64,000 bases of DNA from Candidatus Magasanikiibacteriota bacterium (GTDB taxonomy: Bacteria > Patescibacteriota > Patescibacteriia > Magasanikbacterales > GWA2-37-8), in assembly GCA_017991415.1 (NCBI GenBank), contig JAGOQR010000002.1:97109-161108 (forward strand). The letters are read 5' to 3'. Every line of letters begins with the position of its first letter. Position 1 is the stretch's first letter. A model generated the notes under the pieces. The model did not search any database and was not told the DNA's origin. It saw only the letters and a list, made by a program, of their open reading frames with translations. Below, one piece after another: positions 21,901-53,428 of the stretch. Position numbers and translations under genes: made by a program.

Positions 21901-22165
21901 ACCCTGCAACCTCGATAATAAACTTGAGCACGAAAAAAGTGAGCTTGATAAAAAACCCAGCCAGTGCTAACAAAACAGAAGCAAAAAAATTCATGAGATC
22001 CTCGCCGATACCAGCATGAGCAGTAGGGGTAAAAATCAACCAGGCAGAGATAATAATACTAGACAGAACAACAATACTAACCAAACCTAATTTTTTTCGG
22101 GGACGAAAAAAATCCCAGCCTTTGCTAAGTATCAAGGTAAATGTGCTTTCAAGTTTCGCAAACAT
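18974..22165 (-). CDS. VirB6/TrbL-like polytopic membrane protein with about 700-aa K/E-rich coiled-coil C-terminal extension
   Basis: The N-terminal 330 aa or so contain 7-8 TM helices in a TrbL/VirB6-like arrangement. The remainder is lysine/glutamate-rich and predicted coiled coil. It is the first gene of the minus-strand T4SS-like operon. Confidence 0.55.
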   Translation of the reverse strand: MFAKLESTFTLILSKGWDFFRPRKKLGLVSIVVLSSIIISAWLIFTPTAHAGIGEDLMNFFASVLLALAGFFIKLTFFVLKFIIEVAGYNGFIDSPAVTVGWVMIRDMTNMFFVVVLLMIAFGTILGIEQYEYKHLLVKLLIAAVLVNFSRVICGLIIDIAQIVMVTFVNGIAATASGNLVNMFQVDQIFALAAGQGTTGSASVTFVAAVASITFSVIMLVTMLAFLFLIVARMAMLWVLIVLSPLAFVLNVLHQTEKYAHDWWHQFGSNVVSGPVIAFFLWLSFVTVGSGTIHDDIVKHNALQKDQLLQSGTAEEETVGITKIMSWDKMANFIIAIAMLLAGAKMAQELGVAGGSMMGSAGELGKKVAMYASGLQAARWTAGKVGEGAKAAGKFALMKAPIVGGDEWNRRGRRIKAAASKWYSKKWVEPRLYKAGENINKAYGKEKVKDLSKEHPEIQKLVALRNAAVASHDDSAIENYSKQLQDNGYEVDTDKNGKTELKKSFAGNTRALARMALWFAPAAFKEEYTKDAESGAEYAHEQLEHLVSTSKTPIGKFKTEAEARLHKLEETGSNIKKEKLETFYKKFNDASNEIAAELKVGKTPEELAKSGKFSRAQIFDQSRSKRALEAGEKADLTKHALHAEEERHRLETKEKLLQTGLGHTLEHKAAKEEAASKQLDEKLRAEKELEELKQIKKLLEGKGAKTQEIINFTKAQTANIKEDFDISKEEAEAEQRAKSFRKMGDDLRANQVLAEIQSKTAKRESDRVSAMSWEDKTFALKAMPLKIQQLEVDIAAASTANKPDEVKRLEQIKNKTIQRNMALQTALKSEGKEAAELGDSESLKTIGWTEVIDDTNRIRAELSKILGRVVMAGDETLAAKKVYDAFGGIEKAQGALTLYSNANKSAGMKGAGALFGLVGDRRTSSGQLERFFGQYDQATKTVNTGEINVGSGFYPTKIAEADHRKWITANGYAKINVENQIVGFDSKRAEQLAAIFQGKNDLFISQMQNGFFSSLNNADVNSTNKAEYENLLNEISKVLTDKNAKDRFDARASELLDKIKNLP

Positions 22166-23366: not shown

Positions 23367-26300
23367 CTAGTTATTTGGAGGCACAATTATTCTTCCACTA
23401 AATGTAGAAAACGGACCTTCAGGCAATTCACATTCATTCGCATAACAGTTAGACACTCCTGGACTTGCAAAACCACCACATGACCCGTTGCAATAACCCC
23501 AGTTATCTTTTAGCTGTACTTTTGGCTGGAACACACAACAACCGCCAGACAACGATTGTGTTTGTGCATCTGGACAGCTATCTGTCCAACCATTGCCTCC
23601 GCGAAGACATTGATAGACGTGGTCAAATCGGAAATAAGCTGAGTCACATGTTTTTCCTAAAATCTGACCAAAGTTTTGAGCTTTACTTTCGGCAAAACAG
23701 TTATCCAGGTACATACAATCTGTATTGGAGGCGCATGTTTTTCCTGTGTTAAGATCGTAGACTCCTGGTGTCGAAGAAGCAACCATACAAGTACCAGATG
23801 AACCACATCGGCCATTTACTGCCCCGCGCTGATTACGGAAATAACCATCCAAAGATACAACGCTCGTATCTCCCCAATCTAATTTAATTTTCTTAATCGG
23901 CATTTGATTTTTATCTGCAAAGCCAAAGAACTTTGCATTTACCAACGCGATATTAGTATTAAACAAAATATCTCCAGAAGATTTATCATTAATAGACATA
24001 CCAGTTATAGTACTTTCTAAACATTTACCGCCAGGTTTACAGCTTCCCAAAGCCATAGCCTTGGGGACTGGGTTAGCAAAAGAATCAGTAAAATTATATG
24101 GCCGCACCACAGTAGCAGAATCAGTACCTGGAGCAGTGGTTCGAACATAGGCCCAAGAAGTACCTGTAGGTACCCAATTCCAGACACTGTCTATTTTCGC
24201 AAAAATTTGAGCAAAACTACTTTTTGCTTGTGCAATTGATTTTTGGCTTGCCGGACCATTTACTGTTTCATTAGGAGACGGGCTTGTCTTTAAACAATCT
24301 CCGCCACAGCTATATGGTGAACCAAAGATTGCAGGAGGTAAAGATGGTGTAGGTTCACTATAATGGCTAAAAATACTAATGAGTGTTTCTGGTACAAGCG
24401 GAGTAAACATTCCCAAGCTGCCAAATGGCACATTTTGTAAAGAATTTTTATATGCCAATGTTCCTGGGTCGATTACATAGCTACTCCTACTCCACAGTCT
24501 ATCTGTCCAACCAATACTTGAGTATGGATTATCTTCGGTTTGAGCAATATTAAGACACGTTTCTCGCAAACCTACATTCAATGTAAACGAAGCAGACTCA
24601 GTATCACCCGCATCACCTGAAAAACAGGTTAAATTTATCCTATCCAACCTACCGTCCGAATTAAACACAGTTCTAATTGCACAACCATCATCATTGTCGT
24701 CTATATCTCCTCCCAAACAAATATCTTGATAATTATCATTACCCGCAACATCTATACTACCAGCACAATTTGATAATAAATCTTTAAACTGCTCTCCCTG
24801 TATACCGGCAGTATTAGGATCAGCATACTGGTAATGATTATTTCCATCACCCTCACCATCATCATACCGCATATACCAAAAATTTTTATCACGACCATCG
24901 GACCATACATACTTGCCAACATTCAATCCACCAGCTTCACCGACAAATACTTGCGGGTTATTTAAAATTGTTTCTTCAGATCCGTCTCGTTTTACCACCT
25001 GCATCTGAGAATTATACTTGGTAATATATCCATTTCTAATAAAAAATTTATTGGTACCGTTTGGAAACCAGTCACTATTACCGGTTGCTGCAATCATTAT
25101 ATAGTCAATCTCATCTCTATATATAGGCGTATTAACATTCAATGTTATTACGCGTTTTTCACGGCTATTTGATCCGTGACCAGCCGCACTAACCACTGAT
25201 TGCTGTCCAATCAGCTTATCATACGTAACAATGTCTGAGCCTACTATATTGACTACAGTTTGATTGCCTCTGGCTCCTAGACAATAATACTTACCAGATG
25301 CATCATTTGCTTGGAAACCAGCTTCAACGTGTTGATTGTTAATATCAAAAGCACCAGTAATATTATCTTTAGGGAACCAAGTAAGACATGCAAAAAGGTT
25401 TTGTTCGGCATTAAGAAGACGAGAAAAATCTGGCTCGATACAATAACCCTGCCAACCAATAAGACGTGATTGTTTTCTGACTTTTTGACAACTACCGTTT
25501 GTACAGTCTGCATCAGAGCTACAAACCTTATCTGCATTAACACCCCCCATACAAATACCCGGAACAACACTCTTTACGACTTGATTATTTTTATCCAAAA
25601 TACCCTCACTATTAGGACTATTAAAATTCCAATACTTAGCAAGCGAATCACCATACGTTACTTTGGTATAGTTACAATCACAACTATTTGCTTTATCGAT
25701 ATCTGTAGTAAAACCACTTGCTTCATTACATGTATTAACAGAATCAAACGTTACTGAATTTCCTACAGCCTCACTGTTTGGGAAAGGTGAAGTCTCTTCT
25801 GGGTATGCGCGACAAGAAGCAGGAAGTGATTGTCTTGAAACACCCGACAAAGAACTATCTAAATTCTGAACACATACTGGATTAGTGGCTCCAAGACAAA
25901 CACCAATATCACTGCGACCACAGGACTGGCCAATACTTCCTGGCGCACAAATTGGACTCAATGGATTAGCAGTACAATTTGACCCCGTGCCACACGCTAA
26001 TGTTTTTGCCAAACGCCATTCTGGAAGAGAGGCCGTGCCAATATTTACCTCGGAGAGCTCTTCTACTGGAAAGGCATTAAAGATGCTGTAACCACTGAAG
26101 TCTTGGCCTTTCCATTCGATGCTACGATTGCGATATGCATTATCGGTTAAGACTTGACCGCTTAACTCATGCGCATTATCAAGCCAATTAGCACAGTTAA
26201 TAATATCGCCAGTTGACCCAGAAGAAAAAGCCTGATTACAGCGACCAATAGCATCACAGACCTCTTTATAACTACCAGTCTGAGTATCAAAAACTCTATG

Positions 26301-29300
26301 AGAAGAACGGCACTGGAGCCACTCTCCACATTCTCTATCACGAGTTACTTTCAAAATTATATTTGCATCACTTGGTGTTGAACCAGAACCGGCTACCGGT
26401 GCTACAAGCCCATTATTTACTGCCGCACTAGCGGCATAAGATTTTTCTGTACTCCATAATTTATTTGGTAAATCAGTTTTATCAAGAAGAATACAACCAG
26501 ATTTTTCACTCACTTCACCATTACACTCATTTTGATGAGACTTTAATTTATCATCATTAATAAGATAATATGTTTTGTTATTCTGGTTGCGATCTATAAA
26601 CTCCGAACAACCACTTTGCACCTGCGGACACTCACCCACAAAATTATTATACGAACTAGAAACACCATATGACCAGAGACCATAACTGTTTCCAGATTGT
26701 AAATAGTTTGGATAGCACGGCTGCTCGTCTTTATTCTGACAGGTGGCACCTGCGGCACAGTCACTGTCGGTTGAACAGAAACCTGAAGCAGACGAACCAT
26801 TTGTAACACACTTTCCAACACCTTTCCAAAACCAACCGCTATATTTAACACCGTCTTTTGTTACGTTATCTTTGTATGCACAAACTTTTTGGCCAAGATA
26901 CTCTGGATCTTTAAAATACAATGCCCCATCGCCAGATGAATATGAGTTACAACCAACTGCCTCACTCTGACAAAGAGTAGTGTTAAACGTGGCGGGATCT
27001 TTTTTAACTAAAACATCTGCATATGAAGGACCGGTAGCAGTTTGTACTAATTTTCCAGCTTTTATACAACCCAAATCTACTGCATTACAAGTTGATTCTT
27101 TATTGGCAACCAAATAAATAGGCGTTGAGGTTGGAGTGTCAGGCTGAACAAAAATTGTAGAAGAAACTACCCGTGCGCCAGCACTGGTAATAGCAGCCAG
27201 AGTTGCCCCAACAACATTTACATAACAACCCGACTGCCCGATAGTAACCTGACAAGTGTACGCGGTACCAGCAATTGTTCTGCTTGCAGCACTACCTTCT
27301 GCGCCAGATAACCAAACATTGTATGCACGTGAAGTAGTTTCGTCTGGAGTATTATAAGTATCATACACAGCTGTACAGCCGATAGCTTTTTCTCTACACA
27401 AAGATGTAAACCCAGTGAGATACATTGGTCTATTGTCTGGTGTTTTGTACTCAGAACAGCCAAGAGATTCTCCTGGTAGATTGTCGTTTAAATTACTATC
27501 ACAGATAGGATCAACTTTTAAAGTGTTCTTAACTAAATAAATATAGTCAGTTACTTCTTTGAGACTCACATTATCTAGGAACAAACGTCCGTTGCTTTGG
27601 AATTTTAATCTGGTACTTGAAGCTGTACCGCCTAATTCTACTGGACCAAGATGGTAGCTCTGCCAAACATCACCCACACTCACGGTACCAAGAGTAGATA
27701 CTTCGTTATTTTCAAGAGAAACAGTAATGGTTTCGCCAGCAGAGCCTTTGGCCCAGAAAGTTAGATCGTAGCTTGCACCAGGATTAAGGGTTACATTTTT
27801 ATATACTTCTCCCCCACCACTATATGACAAGGAATGCTCTCCTGCATGAGTTGATTCTAATGACTGGGTTACGTTTGCCGAAGGAGCCCAGTTAGCCAGA
27901 GCATCAGAAACAATAGCTTGCTCAAAATTATTACTGAATACATTACGAACATTATTGCCTGAATTTCCTTTATAGGCTCGGCATGTATTTACCGAAGCTG
28001 CACAGGTTTTACTTGTGCCTGCAGTATTAGCAGCGCCACCTGGTAAACCGTAGTAAAAACATTGACCATCACGATATTCTCCACCTTGAGGACAAACTTG
28101 ACAATTATTAGCAGCACTGTCCCATAAACCTTTTTGTAACTCACATTTATCAAAAGACAAGGCAACTGTTTCTAGCTCCGTATCATTTAACCTGTATGGC
28201 ACACAAGCATTGGAAACAGCAATAGTTTTGGAGAGCAACCTGTAATATACAGCACCTTGATCATCATTAAATTGTCGACAATCTGGACTAGCTAAACCTT
28301 GTTTATATAATGTTTCATTACAAATTTCATCGTAATTCTCGAGGGAGCCGCTCGTACGATAGAAATATTTTGGACCACCATCGACTGGATTTTTTTCTAG
28401 AACAAATGCCTTTAATTGGAAACCGCCCACCGAAGATCCTTCGTATGTATAGAAGTTTTTTTGTTTGGTATTATCTGGCAAAATACAAGGACGCAAATAT
28501 GAAAAATGTTCGGTTGTTTCTAAGCCGTTAGTAGTAGCACTTAAATTTGTAAAGCTAGCACACCCCTCGTCTACTGAGCTACATTTTGCTCCTGAAGATG
28601 GAATGACATACGCGACAGATTGTCCAATAGAATAATTACTTGGCATTTCTCTATAGGCAGCATAACCAACACATTTCTTATCACACTGGTCATTCCAGAC
28701 AATTTGATTTTCAACAATTGAAGCTGGTGTAAATTTACCTGGGATACGGTCTCCTGTATAACTACTTGGTTGATACCAATTACAGTTTACTTCATCTGGA
28801 ATACAAGCTTGAGAATAATTACTGCATGCTGGATTTGTCTGCAAACTATTTAAGTCACTAACAGTTTGAGGCCAATCAATTGCAAGCGTCGTTGGATTAG
28901 TATCGTAACACTTGGAGTAATATGGGGCTTTACGCAAATAGAGATTCTGCGATGTGCTGACTGTTTTAAATGCCGAACAACCATCTGAATTTGCTGAACA
29001 ATTGGTTGAAAGCTTGCTATTGAAATAGATAGCCGAATTTTCTCCTACACTACTTAGATCATCTGGAGAATAGCCAGTCCACTTACCTGAATTATCTTGT
29101 TTTAAACTATACTGAGCACAACCAACTGTTTCTTGATTACAAAAACCAGTATCCAAAGAACGGTATAAATAACTAACATTTTTACCAGAACTATCCTGGA
29201 AAGACTGACAGGTTCTAAACTGAGAATCACATTTTGCAGCATCTATTTTCCAAACATTTTTTTCTCTGGTGCAATATCCTTGTGTGGCACAATTACCATC

Positions 29301-30935
29301 TTTATCATAAGCCACACAAGTAGTCATATCTACACACTCCTGAGAACGATTAGCTGTTCCTGGAAAAGATGGAGATGAGCCGTATGCAACAAAATTACAT
29401 TTTGATGGCGGTGCTTTAATTACCCACTCTGGATCAATAAGATGACAGAACGGTTTGTTAACTGGATCATTTTCAACTCCCACCACTTTACCATTCGCAT
29501 CTTTGATAAAATTACAATCATCAAACCCATCAATAACTTGTTTTAGAGTCCACGGCTTATCTGGATTACTATTAAGGACAGCAATTTCAAAACCAAGTGG
29601 CAAAATTCTCGCTTTGCGTAATTTAGCAATATTAGCATAACAGTACGCGCGTTGATGACAGGTTGGATCGGTATTATCAGCGGTTCGATCTGGAGAGATA
29701 AGTTTCCATTCTCCGTGCAACCAATTTTTTTCTAAAGCCTCTGCCACTGTAATAGACTTACCAGAATTTATTTCTTGGGCAGCTTGAGCCAAACCAGCAT
29801 CAGCCACACAATTATCTGGGCTTGGATTGGAAGGGCAGTTAGTAAAATTAAGCAAGGTATTATACTGATCGACTACTATATTAGGCGGCGTAAGCAGATC
29901 ACTAAATAAAGCTTGGGCAGCTTGACGCCCCCCTCGAGAAACCTGACCTTCTAGATTATTGAGCGTGTCTTGTAATGTATTACACTGACCAATCACACCA
30001 GCCACACAACCACCGATTGGTAGCACACCTTTATTTTGCCAATTTTTGAGAACTTGTGAAGCAAGTGTATTTAAAAATAAACTGCCGGCGCTTGCAATAC
30101 TACCTACTGCACCTGTACTAAGCGTGGCTAAAAATCCCGCTTCAGCTTTGTTGGCTTGCTCGCTCGGATTTTGCGACTGCGCTTCTTCTTTGATATTTGC
30201 TGCAGGGATAGTTATCTGATTAGAGATAAGAGTAGTTTTTGGATTATATCCTTCTCCTTCTTGGCGCTGCAATTTTTCAGCTTCAGTTTGTTGAGCAACG
30301 TAATTATTAATTTTTTCTGTTGCGCTCATTAGAATTCCAACATCGGTCTGCTCTACGGAAAAAGCCACATTAAATTTTCGAGCAATATCATCGCTTGAAC
30401 CAAACTGGCTCTGCCAGTTACTGGCGTTTAAAACATTGTTGTTAAACTCAGACCAAGTACACGTTGGTTTACGAACCCCTTGAGTCTGCGTATTTAAACC
30501 TGGGTTTAAATCCATGAATTTATAAGTAAGACCAATACGCATGGCGAGGTCTATTTTTGGATCTGGAATTTTACAAAGGTTTAAACCATATGGAGAACCT
30601 AAAGCTTCGATTGCTACGCCCGCAGCATTGTTGCCCACATCCTTCATATAACTACCAAAATCTTTGTATTGAGCAAACGGTGTTTGCCCTTTTCCACCCG
30701 AAGCCATCCAGACAGCTGTATCGTATGCAATACGACGTAAAAAATATGAAAAAGATTGAATAGCAATATTTACACCCGCAGTTTTTATAAAACGTTCGGC
30801 AAGGGCTGTAAAATCAGAAACAATTTCTACGGGAAACGCTTGTGCTGGCTTTACATATAAAAAAGAACCACCTATGGTCACAAACGTAAATATGGTAAGT
30901 AAAATTTTTAGTCCAAACTTTTTATATGTTGACAT
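23367..30935 (-). CDS. Giant (2522 aa) cysteine-rich secreted or surface protein
   Basis: Single uninterrupted ORF. N-terminal signal or anchor (LKILLTIFTFVTIGGSFLYVKPAQA). Very high Cys content throughout, including many CxxC-like pairs. G/S/T/N-rich. No catalytic motifs recognised. Confidence 0.8.
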   Translation of the reverse strand: MSTYKKFGLKILLTIFTFVTIGGSFLYVKPAQAFPVEIVSDFTALAERFIKTAGVNIAIQSFSYFLRRIAYDTAVWMASGGKGQTPFAQYKDFGSYMKDVGNNAAGVAIEALGSPYGLNLCKIPDPKIDLAMRIGLTYKFMDLNPGLNTQTQGVRKPTCTWSEFNNNVLNASNWQSQFGSSDDIARKFNVAFSVEQTDVGILMSATEKINNYVAQQTEAEKLQRQEGEGYNPKTTLISNQITIPAANIKEEAQSQNPSEQANKAEAGFLATLSTGAVGSIASAGSLFLNTLASQVLKNWQNKGVLPIGGCVAGVIGQCNTLQDTLNNLEGQVSRGGRQAAQALFSDLLTPPNIVVDQYNTLLNFTNCPSNPSPDNCVADAGLAQAAQEINSGKSITVAEALEKNWLHGEWKLISPDRTADNTDPTCHQRAYCYANIAKLRKARILPLGFEIAVLNSNPDKPWTLKQVIDGFDDCNFIKDANGKVVGVENDPVNKPFCHLIDPEWVIKAPPSKCNFVAYGSSPSFPGTANRSQECVDMTTCVAYDKDGNCATQGYCTREKNVWKIDAAKCDSQFRTCQSFQDSSGKNVSYLYRSLDTGFCNQETVGCAQYSLKQDNSGKWTGYSPDDLSSVGENSAIYFNSKLSTNCSANSDGCSAFKTVSTSQNLYLRKAPYYSKCYDTNPTTLAIDWPQTVSDLNSLQTNPACSNYSQACIPDEVNCNWYQPSSYTGDRIPGKFTPASIVENQIVWNDQCDKKCVGYAAYREMPSNYSIGQSVAYVIPSSGAKCSSVDEGCASFTNLSATTNGLETTEHFSYLRPCILPDNTKQKNFYTYEGSSVGGFQLKAFVLEKNPVDGGPKYFYRTSGSLENYDEICNETLYKQGLASPDCRQFNDDQGAVYYRLLSKTIAVSNACVPYRLNDTELETVALSFDKCELQKGLWDSAANNCQVCPQGGEYRDGQCFYYGLPGGAANTAGTSKTCAASVNTCRAYKGNSGNNVRNVFSNNFEQAIVSDALANWAPSANVTQSLESTHAGEHSLSYSGGGEVYKNVTLNPGASYDLTFWAKGSAGETITVSLENNEVSTLGTVSVGDVWQSYHLGPVELGGTASSTRLKFQSNGRLFLDNVSLKEVTDYIYLVKNTLKVDPICDSNLNDNLPGESLGCSEYKTPDNRPMYLTGFTSLCREKAIGCTAVYDTYNTPDETTSRAYNVWLSGAEGSAASRTIAGTAYTCQVTIGQSGCYVNVVGATLAAITSAGARVVSSTIFVQPDTPTSTPIYLVANKESTCNAVDLGCIKAGKLVQTATGPSYADVLVKKDPATFNTTLCQSEAVGCNSYSSGDGALYFKDPEYLGQKVCAYKDNVTKDGVKYSGWFWKGVGKCVTNGSSASGFCSTDSDCAAGATCQNKDEQPCYPNYLQSGNSYGLWSYGVSSSYNNFVGECPQVQSGCSEFIDRNQNNKTYYLINDDKLKSHQNECNGEVSEKSGCILLDKTDLPNKLWSTEKSYAASAAVNNGLVAPVAGSGSTPSDANIILKVTRDRECGEWLQCRSSHRVFDTQTGSYKEVCDAIGRCNQAFSSGSTGDIINCANWLDNAHELSGQVLTDNAYRNRSIEWKGQDFSGYSIFNAFPVEELSEVNIGTASLPEWRLAKTLACGTGSNCTANPLSPICAPGSIGQSCGRSDIGVCLGATNPVCVQNLDSSLSGVSRQSLPASCRAYPEETSPFPNSEAVGNSVTFDSVNTCNEASGFTTDIDKANSCDCNYTKVTYGDSLAKYWNFNSPNSEGILDKNNQVVKSVVPGICMGGVNADKVCSSDADCTNGSCQKVRKQSRLIGWQGYCIEPDFSRLLNAEQNLFACLTWFPKDNITGAFDINNQHVEAGFQANDASGKYYCLGARGNQTVVNIVGSDIVTYDKLIGQQSVVSAAGHGSNSREKRVITLNVNTPIYRDEIDYIMIAATGNSDWFPNGTNKFFIRNGYITKYNSQMQVVKRDGSEETILNNPQVFVGEAGGLNVGKYVWSDGRDKNFWYMRYDDGEGDGNNHYQYADPNTAGIQGEQFKDLLSNCAGSIDVAGNDNYQDICLGGDIDDNDDGCAIRTVFNSDGRLDRINLTCFSGDAGDTESASFTLNVGLRETCLNIAQTEDNPYSSIGWTDRLWSRSSYVIDPGTLAYKNSLQNVPFGSLGMFTPLVPETLISIFSHYSEPTPSLPPAIFGSPYSCGGDCLKTSPSPNETVNGPASQKSIAQAKSSFAQIFAKIDSVWNWVPTGTSWAYVRTTAPGTDSATVVRPYNFTDSFANPVPKAMALGSCKPGGKCLESTITGMSINDKSSGDILFNTNIALVNAKFFGFADKNQMPIKKIKLDWGDTSVVSLDGYFRNQRGAVNGRCGSSGTCMVASSTPGVYDLNTGKTCASNTDCMYLDNCFAESKAQNFGQILGKTCDSAYFRFDHVYQCLRGGNGWTDSCPDAQTQSLSGGCCVFQPKVQLKDNWGYCNGSCGGFASPGVSNCYANECELPEGPFSTFSGRIIVPPNN

Positions 30936-45430: not shown

Positions 45431-46039
45431 TTATTTTTTTACAACGAGTATCTGATTAACCCATACACTGTTTTCTTTTACAAAAATTTCTTCTTCAATG
45501 TGAAACGCAAGTGATTCTAAGATTTCTCTTATTTTTTCTGGCCGATGATAGAATGATTCGATAATAATTGGGTCTGCTTTGGTTTTTACCAGTGGCGGAT
45601 CTTTTTGATTAATGTTAGTAACAACAAACATACCGCCATCTTTTAAGACTCTGTAGACCTCATCAAAAAACCTCGTCGGGTCCTTAAGGTGCACAATTAA
45701 AAAAGCTGCCGCTATAATATCAAAAGTATCCTGATCAAAAGATAAACGCTCGGCATCCCCCACTACAGTTTGAATCTTACTATTTTTCTTTTGTACCAAT
45801 TCTAGCATCTTGGGCGATATATCAAGCGCCGTTACCTGAGCGCCCTTATTTGCCAAAAACAAAGACAACCGCCCTGTACCAGCTCCAATATCTAATACTT
45901 TTTTACCAGTCAATTCACCCAACAAAGGAATAACCTTTCCTTGCTCAAAACTATTCAGATATTTTTCTTTCTCATCATAAAACTGAGCCGCTTGATTGTA
46001 GCCTTCTTCAGAAGAGAGTACTTTTATCTTTTTAGACAT
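45431..46039 (-). CDS. Class I SAM-dependent methyltransferase
   Basis: VLDIGAGTGRLSLFLA (motif I) and a downstream acidic residue (ALDIS). Confidence 0.7.
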   Translation of the reverse strand: MSKKIKVLSSEEGYNQAAQFYDEKEKYLNSFEQGKVIPLLGELTGKKVLDIGAGTGRLSLFLANKGAQVTALDISPKMLELVQKKNSKIQTVVGDAERLSFDQDTFDIIAAAFLIVHLKDPTRFFDEVYRVLKDGGMFVVTNINQKDPPLVKTKADPIIIESFYHRPEKIREILESLAFHIEEEIFVKENSVWVNQILVVKK

Positions 46040-47606
46040 ATATATTAGTTTTTTTACTATTTCTTACTACGACCAGCACCATGAGCAGATAGAGCACTGC
46101 CATAACCCACCCCGAAATACGCATATCAAATGCAGACCAGCTCTGACGACCAAACCAATTCACTACCATTATAACATACCGAGTACCAACCCAAGCGAAC
46201 CATGCAACTATTTGACCTATAGGAAAAAATAGAGCGCTTAAGATAAGAGCTATAAAACCAAATAGCATTAAAAATGGCATGATCCACAAGATAAGGATAT
46301 TTACGAACGGTGCCGAAACTGAAAATCGCCCAAATTGGTATAAGATAAGTGGTAGCGTAGCAACAATAGCTGACATGGTGGTAAGAAACACTTCAACTAT
46401 ACCTACCATAAATGAATTATTAATTTTAATTTTCTTATCAAATAATTTTTGCAACATGGGTGAAATATACACTAATCCAATAGTGGCTAAAAAAGATAAC
46501 TGAAATCCTGCATCCCAAATTAATAAATATGGATTAAATAAAAGCATAACTACCGCTGCATATATAAGCACTCGGTCTATAGCCGACAGCCTGCCAATAT
46601 GTTGGGAGACAAGTACAAGCAGAGCCATTACACCAGCCCGCAACACCGAAGCGCTAGCACCAGTAAAAAGGACAAAAACAATAATAAGAAATACTAGCAA
46701 CCAAAATGATTGACGCCGAAAAAATCCTAAGTAAATCAAAATTGAATGTAAGGCAACAATAATGATAGTTACGTTATATCCCGAAACTGCCACAATATGG
46801 CTCACACCTGTGCGACTAAAATTATCTGCCAAATCATCGGGTAAGCCACTACGACTGCCGTATAAAATACCTGCCAACAAACTATTATCTGGCTCGGGCC
46901 ACAGTCGCGACATCTGAGACTGAATTTTATTTTTAAATTGTAGTATTATACTCATCAAAAAATTTCCTTTATTTTCTCCTAAGGATTTTATTTTTGGATT
47001 GCCACAAATAGACCATACATCTTGCTTGGCTAAATATTTTACATAATTAAACCTACTGTCTTCAAAATTTTTTGGTGCTTGTAAAGAACAGTCGATTTGC
47101 AAAAACTCTCCATACGCATATTGCGGATAGAACCTTGTTTTCAACATAATATTTCCAGATACTGCCTGCCAATTATTATTAATTTTTAATTGATTGACTT
47201 GAACAATATACTGCACGTCCCCTATTCCCATATCAGGCTCTTTTGCAACAAAACCTTGCACTAACAACTTTTCTCCATTATAAAAATGGATTTGCTTTGG
47301 ACTAGTCTCTGGAATAGTTATTAAAAAACGACAACCACCTAAAACAAAAACTAATATACAGAGACTAAAAAATCTAATCCATTGTTTAGACCAACAGATA
47401 ATAATTAAAAAAAGTAAAAGAAAGGCAAAACCATAAAGATATAAAAGGGCTCTACTATTATTTAAAAAAGAGAAGCCGCTGGCACCCAGAATAAAACAAA
47501 AACAAAATGTGAGAAACATTTTGTTTTTTGATTTAATAAAATCATGTCGCGTAATTGTCCATTGAAGCACGGTGCTTTTAATCTTACCCATCCCCTCCTT
47601 TATCAT
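46032..47606 (-). CDS. comEC: ComEC/Rec2 competence membrane channel (DUF4131 plus Competence domain, no fused MBL domain)
   Basis: Polytopic. Conserved Competence-domain block SRTGVSHIVAVSGYNVTII. 524 aa ending before any MBL domain. Confidence 0.75.
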   Translation of the reverse strand: MIKEGMGKIKSTVLQWTITRHDFIKSKNKMFLTFCFCFILGASGFSFLNNSRALLYLYGFAFLLLFLIIICWSKQWIRFFSLCILVFVLGGCRFLITIPETSPKQIHFYNGEKLLVQGFVAKEPDMGIGDVQYIVQVNQLKINNNWQAVSGNIMLKTRFYPQYAYGEFLQIDCSLQAPKNFEDSRFNYVKYLAKQDVWSICGNPKIKSLGENKGNFLMSIILQFKNKIQSQMSRLWPEPDNSLLAGILYGSRSGLPDDLADNFSRTGVSHIVAVSGYNVTIIIVALHSILIYLGFFRRQSFWLLVFLIIVFVLFTGASASVLRAGVMALLVLVSQHIGRLSAIDRVLIYAAVVMLLFNPYLLIWDAGFQLSFLATIGLVYISPMLQKLFDKKIKINNSFMVGIVEVFLTTMSAIVATLPLILYQFGRFSVSAPFVNILILWIMPFLMLFGFIALILSALFFPIGQIVAWFAWVGTRYVIMVVNWFGRQSWSAFDMRISGWVMAVLYLLMVLVVVRNSKKTNIYV

Positions 47607-47609
47607 ACG

Positions 47610-48245
47610 CTATACTTCAATGCTTTTTCCATCTTCAATAACTTCCCAGTTAATACCTTCTTGAGACAAAAATGTTTCTGGCATTTTATGAAATCCTGTT
47701 GTTATTTTTAACATTCCATCATGAATCGGAAAAGCAATTTTTGGCTTTACCGCCTTAGCATAATCAATCACTTCACTAACCTTACTCCATGGCGCACATA
47801 CTGGTAACGCTAATATCTCTATAGGTTTTAATGGAACATATAATGAATCCCCTGGATGAAATAACTTACCGCCAATAAGAAAACCGGTATTATCTAGATG
47901 TTGCAAAACAGGATAAATAATAGCATGGTCTTTTCCAAAAGCCTCTACACTAACTCCACCCACAACAACAGTTTGCCCATTTTCTAATAGTCTGAATGGC
48001 AACTTTGCTTCTTCTAATTTCTTTCCCACTCCTTGATTGGTATAGATAACTACTTGAGAATTATATGATAAATTTTTTTGCAACCATTCAATATTTAAAT
48101 GATCTAGATGCTCATGCGTAATAAGAATGGCATCTAAAGTTTTTACATCGGACGGGATAGTTGACCATATCCCGGGATCAATAAGAATTCGAGCACTAGC
48201 TTCTTCTACCAACAAACAAGAGTGTCCGAACTTGGTAATACGCAT
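47610..48245 (-). CDS. MBL-fold metallo-hydrolase
   Basis: ILITHEHLDHLN (HxHxDH) motif. 211 aa. Adjacent to comEC. Confidence 0.65.
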   Translation of the reverse strand: MRITKFGHSCLLVEEASARILIDPGIWSTIPSDVKTLDAILITHEHLDHLNIEWLQKNLSYNSQVVIYTNQGVGKKLEEAKLPFRLLENGQTVVVGGVSVEAFGKDHAIIYPVLQHLDNTGFLIGGKLFHPGDSLYVPLKPIEILALPVCAPWSKVSEVIDYAKAVKPKIAFPIHDGMLKITTGFHKMPETFLSQEGINWEVIEDGKSIEV

Positions 48246-48246
48246 A

Positions 48247-51200
48247 CTAAACTACTATACTAATTAATTTTCCTTTCACGTAAATAATTTTCTTTGGCTC
48301 TTTGCCTTCTAGCCATTTCTGAATTTTCTCGCTTGATAAGACTGCTTTTTTAGCATCTTCTTCGGAAATTTCGGCAGGCATTGTTATGGTATCGCGTAAT
48401 TTGCCATTTACTTGTACTGCCAAAGTGATTTCGTTTTCTATGGTTAGTTTTTCATCATATTCTGGCCAAGATTCTAGGGCAATACTTTTTTTATGACCGA
48501 GCTGACTCCATATTTCTTCGCACATGTGCGGAGCAAACGGAGACAGCGCTTTAACAAACAGAGCGTAGTGTGCAGCAAGTATTTTTTCTTGCTTGGACAT
48601 TTCATTTGCAAGCTCCATCATTTTGGCTATAGCTGTATTAAACCGCATTGTTTCTATATCTTCGGTTACTTTTTTAATTGTTTGATGTAATTGTGTTTCC
48701 AGTTTAGCATCAACAACATGAGATTTAGATAAAGCGCCCGCTACAATTTTTTCTTGTAACGCCCAAACTTTATCCAAAAACCGACGCACACCAACAAGCC
48801 CATTTGTATCCCACTCTACGGCCTGGTCGAATGGACCCATAAACATGATATACGTACGCAGCGTATCCGCACCAAATTGATCTACCATCTCATCTGGATT
48901 GATAACATTACCACGAGACTTACTCATCTTTTCTCCACCTTTAGCCAGAATCATGCCATGTGAAGTGCGTTTTTTATACGGCTCACCGGTTGGCACCAAC
49001 CCAATATCGTATAAAAATTGATTCCAAAAACGAGAATACAACAAATGCAAAACCGTATGTTCCATACCGCCATTATACCAATCTACTGGCTGCCAATATG
49101 CAAGCAAATCTTGATTCCAAAATTTATCGCCCTTAAGGTTCAACATTTTTTCGCCACCGAGTGCATATGCCAAGAAATACCAACTAGAACCTGCCCAATT
49201 TGGCATAGTATCTGTTTCGCGCTTGGCAGGATTGCCACACTGCGGACATTTGGTATGTACCCATTTAGTAATAGCCGCGAGCGGAGATTCGCCCGTATCA
49301 GTCGGCTGATATTTTTCTACTTTTGGAAGTTTGAGTGGTAATTCACTTTCTGGCAATGGCACCCAACCAGTGTTTTTACTGTGTAAAAATTCTTCTAAAA
49401 GTTCTGGGATTTTTTTGTCCGTAAAATGCCTAAAGCCATTCCATTTTTTAAATACCCAAGTACTTGGGACAGTACCACGCATACTACCAGGTAGCATATG
49501 ATCATCGGCAGAAATAATAACAGTCTTATTGAGTGCATGCTTTTCAACCTGTTTCCAATCAAACGATACATTCCAAAACTTTTTTAATGCTTCAACATCA
49601 ACACCACTATGTTTTTGCGCAAACTCTTTCCAATCACGCGATTCAATTTCACCGATAGCTGAGGCAACCAAATATACATGGCCAATTTTCTTTTTACTTT
49701 TTTCGAGTAAATGCAACGCCGCCTTGCTGCCTAGGCTATGACCAACCAGCACGTCATTTTCTCCAAGTGTATCAAAATATGGTTGCAACGCAGCAAGCCA
49801 TTTATTAAGGTCTGGATGATTACTATCTGGTAACGTTGGTACCATTACTTCAAATCCTTGTTTTTCTAATTCTGTTTTCATCCATGGCAGCCAATTACTA
49901 TCTCCACTTGCTTCAAAGCCATGTATTAATAATACTTTTTGTTTTTGGTTTTTACAATGTTCACAAAAAACAAGCGGGATTGGTTCACCCCAATAGCGCT
50001 GACGAGAAAATACCCAGTCACGTAATTTATAATTAATCTGTTTTTTACCTATGTTATTTTTTTCTACAAATTCTAAAACCTTTTGTTTTGCCGCACTTGT
50101 TGTTAAGCCATTTAAAAAATCAGAATGCACTGATACGCCTTCACCAGCATAGAGCTCTTGTGTAAATAAACGGTGCACATCTTGAGGCACTTTTAAAATC
50201 TGTTCGTCTGGTAATAACTCTTTTAATAAATCATACCCGCAATAACCCCATGCACAGCCAATTATTTTTTTACGATCCATGCAATTTTCTAATTCATAGA
50301 CATCCGCTTTGGAGTCGGTAAAATAATAGACATCTTGCATAGAAATCCCCCACTCTTTACAAACTTGTTCTATTTTTTCTTCTTTAGAGTGATGATCTTC
50401 GTATGTTAAAACATGGGTTGGATTAAGACCAGTTTCTTGTATTCTATTTTTAATGTACAAACTAGATCCAGCAGAAATAATTGCGATCTTGGTATTAGGA
50501 ATACGCTGCAACTCTTTATTAAAATCAGAAAATAAAGGATAGTTAATTTTTGCCATTGCCTCGCCAAACCGACGGGTCCAATCAAGCTTTGCTGCCACCT
50601 CTGCTTCGGTTAGGCTATGCCCTTTAACATGGTTCGGTTTATTGCTAAAGTATTTTGTCATGGACTCAATTACTTCTTCTCTACTCTTATCACCATCCAT
50701 GGTCATTTGCGATGCAACACACGCCTCAAACGTATCACCAATCACCCCATCAAAATCAAAAATCAAATATTTAGTTTTTTCGTTTGCTCCACTATTTGTC
50801 TGTACCACTTGCTTAATCGGCAGACCAAACTTCTTAGCAAAATCAAAATCACGTTCATCGTGAGCTGGCACGCCCATAATGGCGCCAGTACCAACACCGC
50901 CCATAACATAATTAGTTACCCACACTGGTACTTCTTCTTTGGAAACTGGATTAACGGCCATAATGCCAGCATATATACCAGTTTTCTCTTGCTCTTCACG
51001 CGTAGTTGTTGCCGCGCGATTTTTTAATTCCTGGTCAATATATGTTGTTACTTCGTTACTAGCAGCCCAACCAACATCTAGCCAACTCTTGGCCAATTCT
51101 GGAGAGATAGCCAAAAATGTTACACCAAAAATAGTATCTGGTCGTGTAGTAAATACAGTTACCGAATGTGCACCTTCTGGTTGAGATAGCACGCGTAATG

Positions 51201-51900
51201 GAAATATTACTTCTACACCTTCGCTTTTACCAATCCAATTTTCTTGACTGGTACGAGCGCGCTCAATATAATCTACTTCTTTTAAGCCTTCTAATAATTT
51301 ATCCGCATATTTGGTAATAGCAAGCATCCATTGTTCTTTATTTCTTTTTTCTACCACCGTACCACAACGCTCACAACAACCACCAACCACTTCTTCGTTG
51401 GCCAATCCGATCTTATCTTTTGGGCACCAATTAATTGGCTGATTCTTTTTATATGCCAGTCCATGTTTATAGAATTGTAAAAATAACCATTGGGTCCATT
51501 TGTAATACTGCGGATCGGTGGTATCTACTTGTCTGGACCAATCAAAACCAAACCCAAGCATTTTGAGCTGGCGAGTAAAATTAGCAATATTTTTTTTGGT
51601 TACCTCGGCCGGTGGCTTACCGGTTTTAATAGCAAAATTTTCGGTAGGCAGCCCAAACGCATCAAATCCAATCGGAAATAATACATTTTTTCCTTCCATT
51701 CTTTTTTTGCGCGTAATAACATCCATGGCCGTAAACGGACGCGGATGACCAACATGCAACCCTTCACCACTTGGGTACGGAAACTCAATAAGACCATAAA
51801 ACTTTTCTTTTGTTTTACTTTCTGTAACTTCAAATGTTTTTTCTTTTGCCCAATATTTTTGCCATTTTGGCTCTATTTTTTTCGGGTCGTATTTTTTCAT
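48247..51900 (-). CDS. leuS: Leucyl-tRNA synthetase with two inserted enzyme-like domains (HAD-like and YdeN/RBBP9-like alpha/beta hydrolase)
   Basis: HVGHPRPFTAMDV (HIGH region). Editing-domain motifs. LRDWVFSRQRYWGEPIP, RETDTMPNWAGSSWYF and KMSKSRGNV. Extra segments: IFDFDGVIGDT... (HAD DxDG) and VLLIHGFEASGDSNWLPWMK...VGHSLGSKAA (GxSxG hydrolase). Confidence 0.85.
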   Translation of the reverse strand: MKKYDPKKIEPKWQKYWAKEKTFEVTESKTKEKFYGLIEFPYPSGEGLHVGHPRPFTAMDVITRKKRMEGKNVLFPIGFDAFGLPTENFAIKTGKPPAEVTKKNIANFTRQLKMLGFGFDWSRQVDTTDPQYYKWTQWLFLQFYKHGLAYKKNQPINWCPKDKIGLANEEVVGGCCERCGTVVEKRNKEQWMLAITKYADKLLEGLKEVDYIERARTSQENWIGKSEGVEVIFPLRVLSQPEGAHSVTVFTTRPDTIFGVTFLAISPELAKSWLDVGWAASNEVTTYIDQELKNRAATTTREEQEKTGIYAGIMAVNPVSKEEVPVWVTNYVMGGVGTGAIMGVPAHDERDFDFAKKFGLPIKQVVQTNSGANEKTKYLIFDFDGVIGDTFEACVASQMTMDGDKSREEVIESMTKYFSNKPNHVKGHSLTEAEVAAKLDWTRRFGEAMAKINYPLFSDFNKELQRIPNTKIAIISAGSSLYIKNRIQETGLNPTHVLTYEDHHSKEEKIEQVCKEWGISMQDVYYFTDSKADVYELENCMDRKKIIGCAWGYCGYDLLKELLPDEQILKVPQDVHRLFTQELYAGEGVSVHSDFLNGLTTSAAKQKVLEFVEKNNIGKKQINYKLRDWVFSRQRYWGEPIPLVFCEHCKNQKQKVLLIHGFEASGDSNWLPWMKTELEKQGFEVMVPTLPDSNHPDLNKWLAALQPYFDTLGENDVLVGHSLGSKAALHLLEKSKKKIGHVYLVASAIGEIESRDWKEFAQKHSGVDVEALKKFWNVSFDWKQVEKHALNKTVIISADDHMLPGSMRGTVPSTWVFKKWNGFRHFTDKKIPELLEEFLHSKNTGWVPLPESELPLKLPKVEKYQPTDTGESPLAAITKWVHTKCPQCGNPAKRETDTMPNWAGSSWYFLAYALGGEKMLNLKGDKFWNQDLLAYWQPVDWYNGGMEHTVLHLLYSRFWNQFLYDIGLVPTGEPYKKRTSHGMILAKGGEKMSKSRGNVINPDEMVDQFGADTLRTYIMFMGPFDQAVEWDTNGLVGVRRFLDKVWALQEKIVAGALSKSHVVDAKLETQLHQTIKKVTEDIETMRFNTAIAKMMELANEMSKQEKILAAHYALFVKALSPFAPHMCEEIWSQLGHKKSIALESWPEYDEKLTIENEITLAVQVNGKLRDTITMPAEISEEDAKKAVLSSEKIQKWLEGKEPKKIIYVKGKLISIVV

Positions 51901-51995
51901 ATTCTTAACTTTACTTATACAAAAACATAGAAACCTATTTTCTTAGTTTACCTAAGAAAAAATAAATAATCAACCCTGCATATTCTAACTTTTCA

Positions 51996-52030
51996 ACAAA
52001 GAAAACAGGCCTGCCGCCTGTTTTCTTTGT
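51996..52030. terminator. Bidirectional hairpin terminator (AAAACAGGC-ctgcc-GCCTGTTTT) between leuS start region and the upstream gene's end
   Basis: Perfect 9-bp stem with U-runs on both strands. Lies just downstream of the stop of the 52046-53428 gene. Confidence 0.55.
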
Positions 52031-52045
52031 TGAAATTTTATTTAA

Positions 52046-53428
52046 TTAAACTGTAACTGGCAAATCTGCAGTTTTACTGGTTTCAAAAGTTTTATTAATA
52101 CTTATGGCTACTACTATAAACGCTTTTTCAAAAGAATGTTTAGCTAGCATATCTTTAATACCTTGAATTGATTCTGGGCTATCTGCAAATTCTTGCTCTA
52201 ATTGTTTCCATAACTTAGATTTAAAATCTAATAACTCTTGAGTAAAATTTCTTACTGCCTGCTCTCTCATTATTTTACGATCTTCTAAAGATCCTGCATA
52301 ATATTCATCCCCACGCACAGCCAACATACTATTAACATAACGCTCCATTATTTGAACAGGCAGACGATCGACTATAATATCCCCCTTTAATTTACTTGAA
52401 ATTCTAGCACTTCCCAATTCAGGAGTAACGAGTACACGCGAATCTGCACTAATATAAAAAACTGCCCGATTATTCGCAATAACATCTTGTGTAGGAAGCC
52501 TATCTTTAATAAAAGAATAAAAACGAACATGAGGTGACGCTTTTAACCCTGCCTCAAAATCAAATCCTTTTTCACCTCTTTTGACTCCTGAATCTAGAAT
52601 TGGCTGTAACGAAGGTTCGGGAGAAATATTCGGCTCTTGATCTACCTCAGTTGGTGCAGATGGCTCTACATGTCCATTATCTTCTTCTACTGTTTCTGAT
52701 TCAGAAATTCCAGAATCATCTAACAACTGAGATGATAAAAATCCGGGTTCTTCTTGAAAACTTTTTTTATCACCGTTATATATTGAAGCAAAATATCTAA
52801 TTTTATCTGTCTTTTCCCTATCCTCCGACATCAAAGTTCCAGATGCACCCACAGATAAATACCACAGCTTTTCTATATCAGGCTTTTTTAACAACACTTC
52901 TTGATCACTAAGCTCTTTCATTGCGCCCTGCAAAGAGTTATGAATAAGATAGTAGTCAGCCAAAGAAGTTACTAACAATTCTGGGCGAGGATCCATATCA
53001 ATCTGAGCAGATACTTTTTCGGATGAAATATAATAACCCCAAATTCCTACCAGATTATTATACAGCTCTTCATTACGACTACTATCAACTAACAATTTTA
53101 CCTGCGCGTCAACTATTTGTTTTTTTAAATCTGCATCAATTGATTTTGCCAATAAATTCATTGAATAATCAAATGCCTGTATCGCCGCTATTCCAGGTAA
53201 TTTATACTCAGAGCCATGGCCTTGATTTACCATAAACAAATCACTCTCCCACAAGGAGAGCAACTTTTTTGCTTGATCATTTGGATTAACTAAACCTTCT
53301 ATGGTAGAAAAATCTTCTTTGAAGAGTTTATAATTCGCAGCAGAATAGTCGCTCACAAAAGAGAATACTTCATCTTTATTTCTGCGTAATTCTTCTAACG
53401 CTATTCCCGCGAATCTTTCAGCCGACAT
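52046..53428 (-). CDS. hypothetical protein (460 aa)
   Basis: Long ORF with coding-like composition between trxA and leuS. No motif recognised. Confidence 0.45.
   Translation of the reverse strand: MSAERFAGIALEELRRNKDEVFSFVSDYSAANYKLFKEDFSTIEGLVNPNDQAKKLLSLWESDLFMVNQGHGSEYKLPGIAAIQAFDYSMNLLAKSIDADLKKQIVDAQVKLLVDSSRNEELYNNLVGIWGYYISSEKVSAQIDMDPRPELLVTSLADYYLIHNSLQGAMKELSDQEVLLKKPDIEKLWYLSVGASGTLMSEDREKTDKIRYFASIYNGDKKSFQEEPGFLSSQLLDDSGISESETVEEDNGHVEPSAPTEVDQEPNISPEPSLQPILDSGVKRGEKGFDFEAGLKASPHVRFYSFIKDRLPTQDVIANNRAVFYISADSRVLVTPELGSARISSKLKGDIIVDRLPVQIMERYVNSMLAVRGDEYYAGSLEDRKIMREQAVRNFTQELLDFKSKLWKQLEQEFADSPESIQGIKDMLAKHSFEKAFIVVAISINKTFETSKTADLPVTV

Follow-up and report, generated by a model that had tools for sequence, protein, structure and literature searches.

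Two complete hydrolase-type modules nested in a patescibacterial leucyl-tRNA synthetase are probably exchangeable passenger enzymes

The editing domain of class Ia aminoacyl-tRNA synthetases (aaRS) arose when a hydrolase was inserted into their Rossmann fold. For the bacterial leucyl-tRNA synthetases (LeuRS), solved structures include those from Thermus thermophilus (1h3n), Escherichia coli (4aq7, 3zgz) and Neisseria gonorrhoeae (7nua). Here we describe the leuS gene found in a 64,000-nucleotide stretch of contig JAGOQR010000002.1 (positions 97,109 to 161,108) from a Candidatus Magasanikiibacteriota bacterium; this whole stretch is called the window below. Outside two inserts, the encoded protein is colinear with the bacterial LeuRS and shares with them the HIGH and KMSKS motifs, the motifs of the connective polypeptide 1 (CP1) editing domain and the zinc cysteines. 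In contrast to these enzymes, it carries two modules of catalytic type, each about 200 amino acids (aa) long, and it is devoid of the leucine-specific domain, as is the LeuRS of Mycoplasma mobile (PMC3643597). The first module resembles C1-capped phosphatases of the HAD-IA class (2hsz, 4ex7 or AlnB, 2hi0, and the pyrophosphatase 3qu2) in its Rossmannoid core, helical cap and four motifs but is 13-18% identical to them and belongs to a distinct subfamily. The second is similar to YdeN (1uxo) and RBBP9 (2qs9) in fold, size, HG oxyanion motif, GHSLG elbow and the Asp and His of the triad; whereas YdeN and RBBP9 are free-standing, it is nested in a LeuRS. The results presented below make it probable that the two modules are autonomous passenger enzymes tethered to LeuRS and swapped by recombination, and not a proofreading device of the synthetase.

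The leuS gene is a single uninterrupted open reading frame (ORF) of 1217 aa on the minus strand (Table 1). The whole protein scored 963 bits against the NCBIfam model leuS_bact (TIGR00396, cutoff 548), and Pfam matches were obtained for tRNA-synt_1, for the LeuRS editing domain tRNA-synt_1_2 (PF13603, aa 220-375, 176 bits) and for Anticodon_1 (aa 1064-1179). The motifs HVGH (aa 49-52), TTRPDT (251-256), AHDERD (346-351) and KMSKS (991-995) were located; HIGH, KMSKS, TTRPDT and the residues D348/D351 are invariant across the LeuRS alignment, and the LeuRS relatives also conserve the four cysteines of the zinc knuckle and the residues for CP1 editing. Colinearity with T. thermophilus LeuRS (Tt, 1h3n) extends over four blocks (aa 1-368 with Tt 1-364, 582-649 with Tt 375-442, 845-988 with Tt 443-581 and 991-1217 with Tt 637-876), and the gaps between these blocks define the two inserts, at aa ~369-581 and 650-844. 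Insert 1 stands in place of a short loop within the CP1 editing domain. An earlier reading of this DNA, made from the sequence only, had described a 1217-aa leuS at this place with all the canonical motifs and two foreign modules of about 200 aa inserted in frame; length, strand and motifs were as it said, and the alignment to 1h3n, in which both inserts fall outside the colinear blocks, confirmed the modules. The protein has no counterpart of the leucine-specific domain (T. thermophilus 577-634). Where it would be, ahead of KMSKS, a KGGE tetrapeptide is present (aa 986-989, window 48934-48945), reminiscent of the GKDG tetrapeptide reported for the M. mobile enzyme (PMC3643597). The reference genomes nearest to this LeuRS are those of Candidatus Magasanikbacteria. 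On sequence grounds, the protein is the genuine housekeeping LeuRS of a Candidatus Magasanikbacteria-like bacterium (Patescibacteria, candidate phyla radiation) and is presumed to retain leucylation and CP1 editing alongside the modules.

Insert 1 was matched by Pfam HAD_2 at aa 379-534 (38 bits, gathering threshold 23.8), and this score above cutoff, together with a HAD fold and a helical cap, places it among the C1-capped HAD-IA proteins. Motifs I to IV (F-D382-F-D384-G-V, S476/G478/S479, K506/K509 and D529/D533) are invariant in 22 modules, including modules at other LeuRS positions, and the catalytic residues are unchanged even between modules of 25-30% identity. The subfamily is set apart by further invariant residues, among them C(A/S)WGY close to the C-terminus. 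The HAD superfamily signature pointed out by the sequence-only reading was therefore correct; its proposal of a beta-phosphoglucomutase-like protein was not upheld, the resemblance being limited to motif I. This identity was rejected: the module profile matched beta-phosphoglucomutase in the PDB with an E value of 0.6, in the N-terminal half only, and the equivalog model TIGR01990 gave no match to the query module at E <= 0.01 and 16.7 bits (cutoff 189) on a free-standing relative (P0149).

A profile of the HAD module was searched against 1.84 billion cluster representatives and retrieved 822 proteins at E <= 1e-3, 86 of them at E <= 1e-30. More than half of the 150 best matches (79) are free-standing proteins of ~205 aa, whose colinearity with the nested module begins at residue 2 (K-YLIFDFDG) and reaches the C-terminal tail ('...LPDGQILKQFTDIHRLFVS' in the free-standing form versus '...LPDEQILKVPQDVHRLF' in the query). 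By this comparison the nested HAD is a complete copy of a widespread free-standing gene. Another 49 of the 150 are embedded in larger proteins. The hosts are LeuRS (~17), EngA/Der GTPases (10, with up to three HAD domains), class Ia enzymes similar to valyl-tRNA synthetase (ValRS-like; 5, some of which also carry NUDIX, Ham1 or alpha/beta-hydrolase modules), PNPase (2), alanyl-tRNA synthetase (AlaRS; 2), CTP synthase, a class II aaRS of the Asp/Lys type and a fragment of threonyl-tRNA synthetase/AlaRS type. Nesting is extreme in the EngA/Der proteins P0132 and P0134, one EngA having three HAD-type domains with one of them inside the second GTPase domain, and in the LeuRS-like proteins P0179 and P0207, where a serine hydrolase, two or three NUDIX domains and a HAD are in some cases found on one chain.

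Insert 2 sits exactly between the first zinc-knuckle CxxC and the following hairpin. It was matched by Pfam Ser_hydrolase (PF06821) at aa 656-804 with 57 bits (gathering threshold 22) and was similar to Bacillus subtilis YdeN 1uxo (E 4e-18) and to RBBP9 2qs9 (E 4e-5), so that its initial recognition as a serine hydrolase of YdeN/RBBP9 type was sound. The putative catalytic residues are H660 (oxyanion HG), S722 within GHSLG, D799/D800 and H825. H660, S722, G724 and H825 are invariant in 61 nested modules as well as in 34 nested and free-standing sequences; the acid at D799/D800 is kept in most modules, the Asp being shifted in one subtype. Free-standing PF06821 relatives of 176-205 aa, named from Paceibacterota, Parcubacteria, Saccharibacteria and Gracilibacteria, are ~30-38% identical to the query module.

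A structure of aa 1-1150 was predicted with an AlphaFold2 (AF2)-type method (mean predicted local distance difference test score, pLDDT, 83.7; predicted template modelling score, pTM, 0.70), with a dip at the 370-372 junction. Both modules are well folded in this model; in the hydrolase the pLDDT is mostly 86-95 and is lower in two 10-residue blocks. The HAD module modelled alone reached a pLDDT of 93.4 and a pTM of 0.89. Because the model superimposes on the solved LeuRS 1h3n, 7nua and 3zgz (target-normalised template modelling scores of 0.72-0.82), the synthetase is predicted to fold intact around its passengers. Each module is predicted to fold as a globular domain of its own, and the insertion points are modelled as surface loops of the connective-polypeptide regions that leave the core intact. 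The ratio of nonsynonymous to synonymous substitution rates (dN/dS, Nei-Gojobori) was 0.09-0.11 for the HAD, 0.165 for the hydrolase and 0.06-0.11 for the core; the comparison with orthologue L005 gave 0.114, 0.165 and 0.06-0.08, respectively. Both modules are under purifying selection. Their GC content at third codon positions (0.27-0.31) is like that of the LeuRS core and of other genes of the window (0.28-0.38); the base composition of the modules is native to the genome.

The distribution of modules was surveyed in the 120 closest LeuRS, in which conserved blocks were anchored by BLAST and the intervening lengths were measured. Architectures range from no module (26 proteins, ~770-890 aa) to three or more (up to 1536 aa), and even LeuRS whose cores are 75-84% identical to the query carry different sets, either or both of the query modules lacking in some. 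Site s0, before CP1, is occupied by Ham1/ITPase or NUDIX; site s1, the CP1 loop, by HAD, NUDIX, a tandem of NUDIX and HAD, an S-adenosylmethionine (SAM)-dependent methyltransferase or a 124-aa module; site s2, after the first CxxC, by the serine hydrolase in 61 of the 120 proteins; site s2b, in the second CxxC region upstream of RETDTMPNW, by HAD; and site s3, before VDWYNGG, by HAD or a 177-aa module. The HAD is thus found at three or more LeuRS sites and NUDIX at two, the Nudix box being intact in 43 of the 45 NUDIX modules. The 124-aa and ~177-aa modules (P0067, P0074 and P0119) matched no Pfam or PADLOC family. Short s2 inserts of 15-42 aa (P0068, P0051, P0094) lie between the CxxC and GW(V/I/F)PL and end in '...GE(E/I/M)(M/L)NP', for example '...GEEMNP-GW'; since these ends match the linker at the C-terminus of one hydrolase subtype, the short inserts are probably deletion scars. 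Capture of the methyltransferase module of P0046 from a methyltransferase gene near leuS was considered and rejected, the two having only a generic SAM-binding motif in common. Several module-bearing LeuRS are annotated publicly as 'alpha/beta fold hydrolase', 'hypothetical protein' or 'class I tRNA ligase family protein': the nested modules mislead the automatic annotation of the essential leuS gene.

Evidence for exchange came from the orthologue L003 (Logan SRR12762311), a gene of another sequencing run. Codons ~14-284 of the query (~0.8 kb, window ~51050-51860) are 100% identical to it in nucleotides, whereas identity is 58-77% in the HAD segment, 44-59% in the hydrolase segment and mostly 84-97% in the C-terminal core. 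The identical 5' tract looks like a very recent recombination beginning at the gene start. The upstream intergenic and flanking sequences of the two are less than 60% identical. Within this same gene pair the synonymous rate dS is 0.10 in the N-terminal core versus ~2 in the HAD, mid-core and hydrolase segments; the mid-core of aa 582-649, with a dS of 1.4-1.9, goes with both inserts and differs from the flanking core. As dS is not shaped by protein constraint, these values show that the central ~1.4 kb has had a history of its own. Over 61 LeuRS (1830 pairs), the identity of the hydrolase was uncorrelated with that of the core (Spearman -0.001), compared with 0.77 for the two halves of the core. 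Some pairs with cores 96% identical have hydrolases 38% identical, and different subtypes are present in 18% of the pairs with 80-90% core identity. The nested hydrolases fall into 3-4 subtypes that are about as distant from each other as from free-standing proteins (<=44% identity). The HAD shows a moderate co-divergence with the host core (Spearman 0.59). Combined, these comparisons show that the gene is a mosaic produced by recombination, in which the hydrolase module behaves like an exchangeable cassette. The record GCA_020049755.1 holds both the query LeuRS (831-kb contig) and an 83%-identical variant (L005, also P0002; 9-kb contig); its contig numbers exceed 21,000, and it looks like a metagenome assembly with co-occurring strains of different module alleles.

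Several other explanations for the architecture were considered. Separate HAD, hydrolase and leuS genes may have been joined by mis-assembly or by a missed frameshift, or the inserts may be removed as inteins or introns. All the sequences do come from metagenome assemblies, and the identical ORFs on the NCBI contig of 831 kb and on a contig of the separate Logan assembly may share one sample. Nevertheless, the same uninterrupted architecture was present in at least 10 orthologues from other samples, and more than 10 orthologues of different runs stay in frame across both modules; those from other sequencing runs, 68-83% identical, have the same gene neighbourhood (conserved synteny trx-leuS-MBL-ComEC-methyltransferase, for thioredoxin and metallo-beta-lactamase), and other relatives contain homologous inserts in varying sets. 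Furthermore, the LeuRS segments flanking each insert are colinear with solved LeuRS structures, and the dN/dS of the modules is well below 1. No Hint or intein family of Pfam was found in the query protein (E <= 0.1), in agreement with the lack of intein hallmarks observed from the sequence, and no Rfam covariance model matched at E <= 0.1 across 47500-52600, the frame being open through both junctions. An intein was rejected on these grounds and on the HAD and alpha/beta-hydrolase folds of the inserts; a group I or II intron or other structured RNA was rejected likewise. An artefact is thus extremely improbable. 

An alternative that takes the architecture as real is that the modules serve the synthetase itself: the hydrolase would be an extra deacylase for mischarged aminoacyl-tRNA(Leu) or for non-cognate esters or adenylates, the HAD would clear pyrophosphate, AMP or aminoacyl-phosphate, and both would supplement CP1 editing. 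RBBP9, of the same Pfam family as the hydrolase, forms an acyl-enzyme with Leu/Ile, Met, Phe, Tyr and Trp and requires a free alpha-amine, and amide, ester or thioester substrates are allowed by its authors (PMC8866121); cleavage of hydrophobic aminoacyl groups of this kind would suit such a role. The hydrolase is always at the same site beside the catalytic core, and the only hosts identified for it outside LeuRS are class Ia enzymes of ValRS-like type; a HAD pyrophosphatase is among the structural neighbours of the HAD module, whose insertion point is ~20 residues past the conserved editing Asp. However, the same HAD subfamily is free-standing or lodged in EngA, PNPase and CTP synthase, HAD and NUDIX each occupy several LeuRS sites, close LeuRS cores do without either or both modules and, with its CP1 editing residues intact, the enzyme shows no obvious lack of editing for the modules to make good. 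We therefore regard this explanation as unlikely. By analogy with the serine peptidase MccF, the GNAT protein MccE2 and the HIT hydrolase MccH, the modules might instead detoxify antibiotics that mimic aminoacyl-adenylates at the target aaRS; TM84, which mimics leucyl-adenylate, targets LeuRS (PMC8323819). An isoleucyl-tRNA synthetase (IleRS) with a built-in GNAT domain is curated in NCBIfam (NF040702), and the cassette-like turnover of the hydrolase, decoupled from host phylogeny, resembles that of conflict genes. Some hosts are not aaRS, however, the HAD co-diverges moderately with its host, no such inhibitor is known for these communities and neither module matched a PADLOC defence model (a NUDIX module of a relative gave a weak match of 21.8 bits), which makes a role in immunity very improbable. 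The modules might also be selfish nested genes of little or no benefit to the cell, persisting since an imprecise deletion, a frameshift or a stop would kill the essential host. The hosts are indeed all large, conserved and essential genes, close relatives carry the modules only sporadically, the inserts are entire ORFs with precise junctions, and their spread by recombination through conserved flanks is visible. Against this, catalytic residues dispensable for folding are invariant even in modules of 25-30% identity, the same families are kept as free-standing genes, the modules have neither a homing endonuclease nor any other function for mobility, and module-free alleles and the probable deletion scars show that precise loss occurs; we consider purely selfish persistence improbable.

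The explanation that we favour, and hold to be probable, is that of autonomous passenger enzymes. Autonomy is inferred from the occurrence of the HAD as a free-standing protein, at different LeuRS positions and in hosts of unrelated chemistry. Two complete small hydrolase genes, one of HAD-IA phosphatase type and one of PF06821, have been nested in frame in surface loops of LeuRS, and the products are presumed from catalytic conservation and selection to be active. They belong to a guild of 'house-cleaning' type (HAD, serine hydrolase, NUDIX, Ham1/ITPase, methyltransferase) that is repeatedly found inside large essential proteins (class I and II aaRS, EngA/Der, PNPase, CTP synthase); NUDIX, Ham1 and many HAD phosphatases are classic families of nucleotide or metabolite house-cleaning. 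Modules are gained, replaced and lost over short evolutionary time, and homologous recombination via conserved host sequence on either side is the vehicle. Their task would be separate from leucylation; in a cell with a reduced genome it might be, for instance, to sanitise or salvage nucleotides or metabolites. Nesting in an essential gene may provide constitutive co-expression and protection from gene loss where deletion pressure is strong and regulators are few. A ComEC competence protein, two genes downstream of leuS, and a TraG/VirB4-like P-loop ATPase are encoded in the window (Table 1), and such DNA-uptake or transfer functions could feed recombination at leuS.

Some observations weigh against this explanation. 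Neither module has a known activity or substrate; no member of the HAD subfamily is characterised, and relatives with solved structures share 9-21% identity with it. The identified hosts of the serine hydrolase are class Ia aaRS only (LeuRS and ValRS-like), and this distribution is easier to reconcile with a host-coupled role than that of the HAD; this host range comes from local hidden Markov model matches in proteins fetched via the HAD search, a direct homologue search having given short free-standing proteins only. All the identified hosts use nucleotides or aminoacyl-nucleotides, so that a shared chemical link is possible. Finally, low dN/dS could partly reflect selection for foldability, which spares the host from poisoning. 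Yet the catalytic residues are invariant, which points to more than foldability and also speaks against purely structural inserts, the fallback offered by the sequence-only reading. Its main suggestion, a proofreading, deacylation or aminoacyl-AMP hydrolysis activity tied to LeuRS, is weakened by the multi-site, multi-host and free-standing occurrence of the HAD and by cores with other modules or none; a LeuRS-coupled role may still apply, mainly for the serine hydrolase. More broadly, we tentatively propose that Patescibacteria may harbour a hitherto undescribed class of nested 'passenger-enzyme' cassettes (complete genes for HAD, PF06821, NUDIX, Ham1 and other small enzymes), lodged in frame in loops of essential proteins of translation and nucleotide metabolism. 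Such cassettes would be retained as active enzymes and exchanged via the host gene, with a persistence like that of inteins but without splicing, and might in synthetases act in sanitation or as an antidote on the enzyme itself.

Table 1. Segments of leuS and other genes of the window (Tt, residues of T. thermophilus LeuRS)
Feature	Window coordinates	Strand	Basis
Complete leuS ORF with two nested enzyme modules	48247..51900	-	ORF list, NCBIfam leuS_bact, two assemblies, AF2 model
LeuRS aa 1-368: first Rossmann half, HIGH (HVGH 49-52), ZN-1 cysteines, most of CP1	50797..51900	-	aligns with Tt 1-364
Insert 1, aa 369-581: capped HAD-IA phosphatase-type module, core aa ~377-580 plus short linkers	50158..50796	-	CP1 loop, Tt 364-375
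LeuRS aa 582-649: CP1 end, return to catalytic core (RDWVFSRQRYWGEPIP), first CxxC C646/C649	49954..50157	-	aligns with Tt 375-442
Insert 2, aa 650-844: putative YdeN/RBBP9-type alpha/beta serine hydrolase, between CEHC and GWVPLP	49369..49953	-	Pfam PF06821, 1uxo
LeuRS aa 845-1217: hairpin, second CxxC C885/C888, second Rossmann half, KMSKS 991-995, anticodon-binding and C-terminal domains	48247..49368	-	aligns with Tt 443-581, 637-876
460-aa ORF between thioredoxin and leuS	52046-53428	-	
ComEC competence protein	46032-47606	-	
2522-aa ORF	23367-30935	-	
1063-aa ORF	18974-22165	-	
TraG/VirB4-like P-loop ATPase	13798-15669	-	
785-aa fusion	4879-7236	+	

Other genes of the window were also inspected. 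The 460-aa ORF next to leuS had no Pfam match and is missing at L003, L004 and L005; in these orthologous loci the thioredoxin gene is the immediate upstream neighbour of leuS. The 785-aa protein is a fusion of a sugar-transfer-associated ATP-grasp domain with a MATCAP (tyrosine carboxypeptidase-like) domain. Hardly any domain could be recognised in the two large ORFs of 2522 and 1063 aa, a weak CBM_4_9 match in the first being the sole hit; their products are probably surface or host-interaction proteins.

In the searchable full-text literature, where absence is not proof, we found no description of enzyme modules within patescibacterial aaRS or of catalytic HAD, PF06821, NUDIX or Ham1 modules inside bacterial LeuRS, nor any account of such module polymorphism among close relatives or of the same module in EngA, PNPase, CTP synthase and several aaRS. 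The leuS gene offers a case in which domain accretion in an essential enzyme can be observed now, with different enzymes, several sites, presence/absence polymorphism and recombination breakpoints. It further suggests that reduced Patescibacteria genomes hide part of their small-molecule enzymes inside housekeeping genes, where metabolic reconstructions based on gene counts miss them. If the hydrolase or the HAD did act on aminoacyl-nucleotides, aaRS would have a novel means of quality control or of self-protection against antibiotics. For protein engineering, the insertion sites offer places in LeuRS, EngA and PNPase that nature has already validated as permissive to an added domain.

The closest parallel within the synthetases is the CP1 editing domain of class Ia aaRS, also a hydrolase domain nested in a connective-polypeptide loop, and the modules described here are in or beside the same connective-polypeptide regions. 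CP1, however, is ancient, universal and mechanistically integrated, whereas the modules are recent, optional, interchangeable and common to unrelated hosts. In a 2026 survey of domain insertions, the LeuRS editing domain PF13603 was the insert in all 213 events and the host in none (PMC13114784); in the query, by contrast, CP1 acts as a host. Like inteins, the modules are in frame, sporadic and placed at conserved sites of essential proteins, with a history decoupled from that of the host. They differ from inteins in having no Hint fold, splice-junction residues or homing endonuclease; their folds are those of ordinary metabolic enzymes, presumably kept in the mature protein. Synthetases with an extra enzyme or accessory domain are known in the IleRS-GNAT proteins (NF040702) and in the eukaryotic aaRS with appended domains. 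The query matched NF040702 weakly (68 bits, cutoff 1999), at aa 973-1018 in the common class I synthetase core. In those proteins one added domain is fixed lineage-wide, whereas the group of LeuRS described here has several internal sites, several enzyme families and a rapid turnover.

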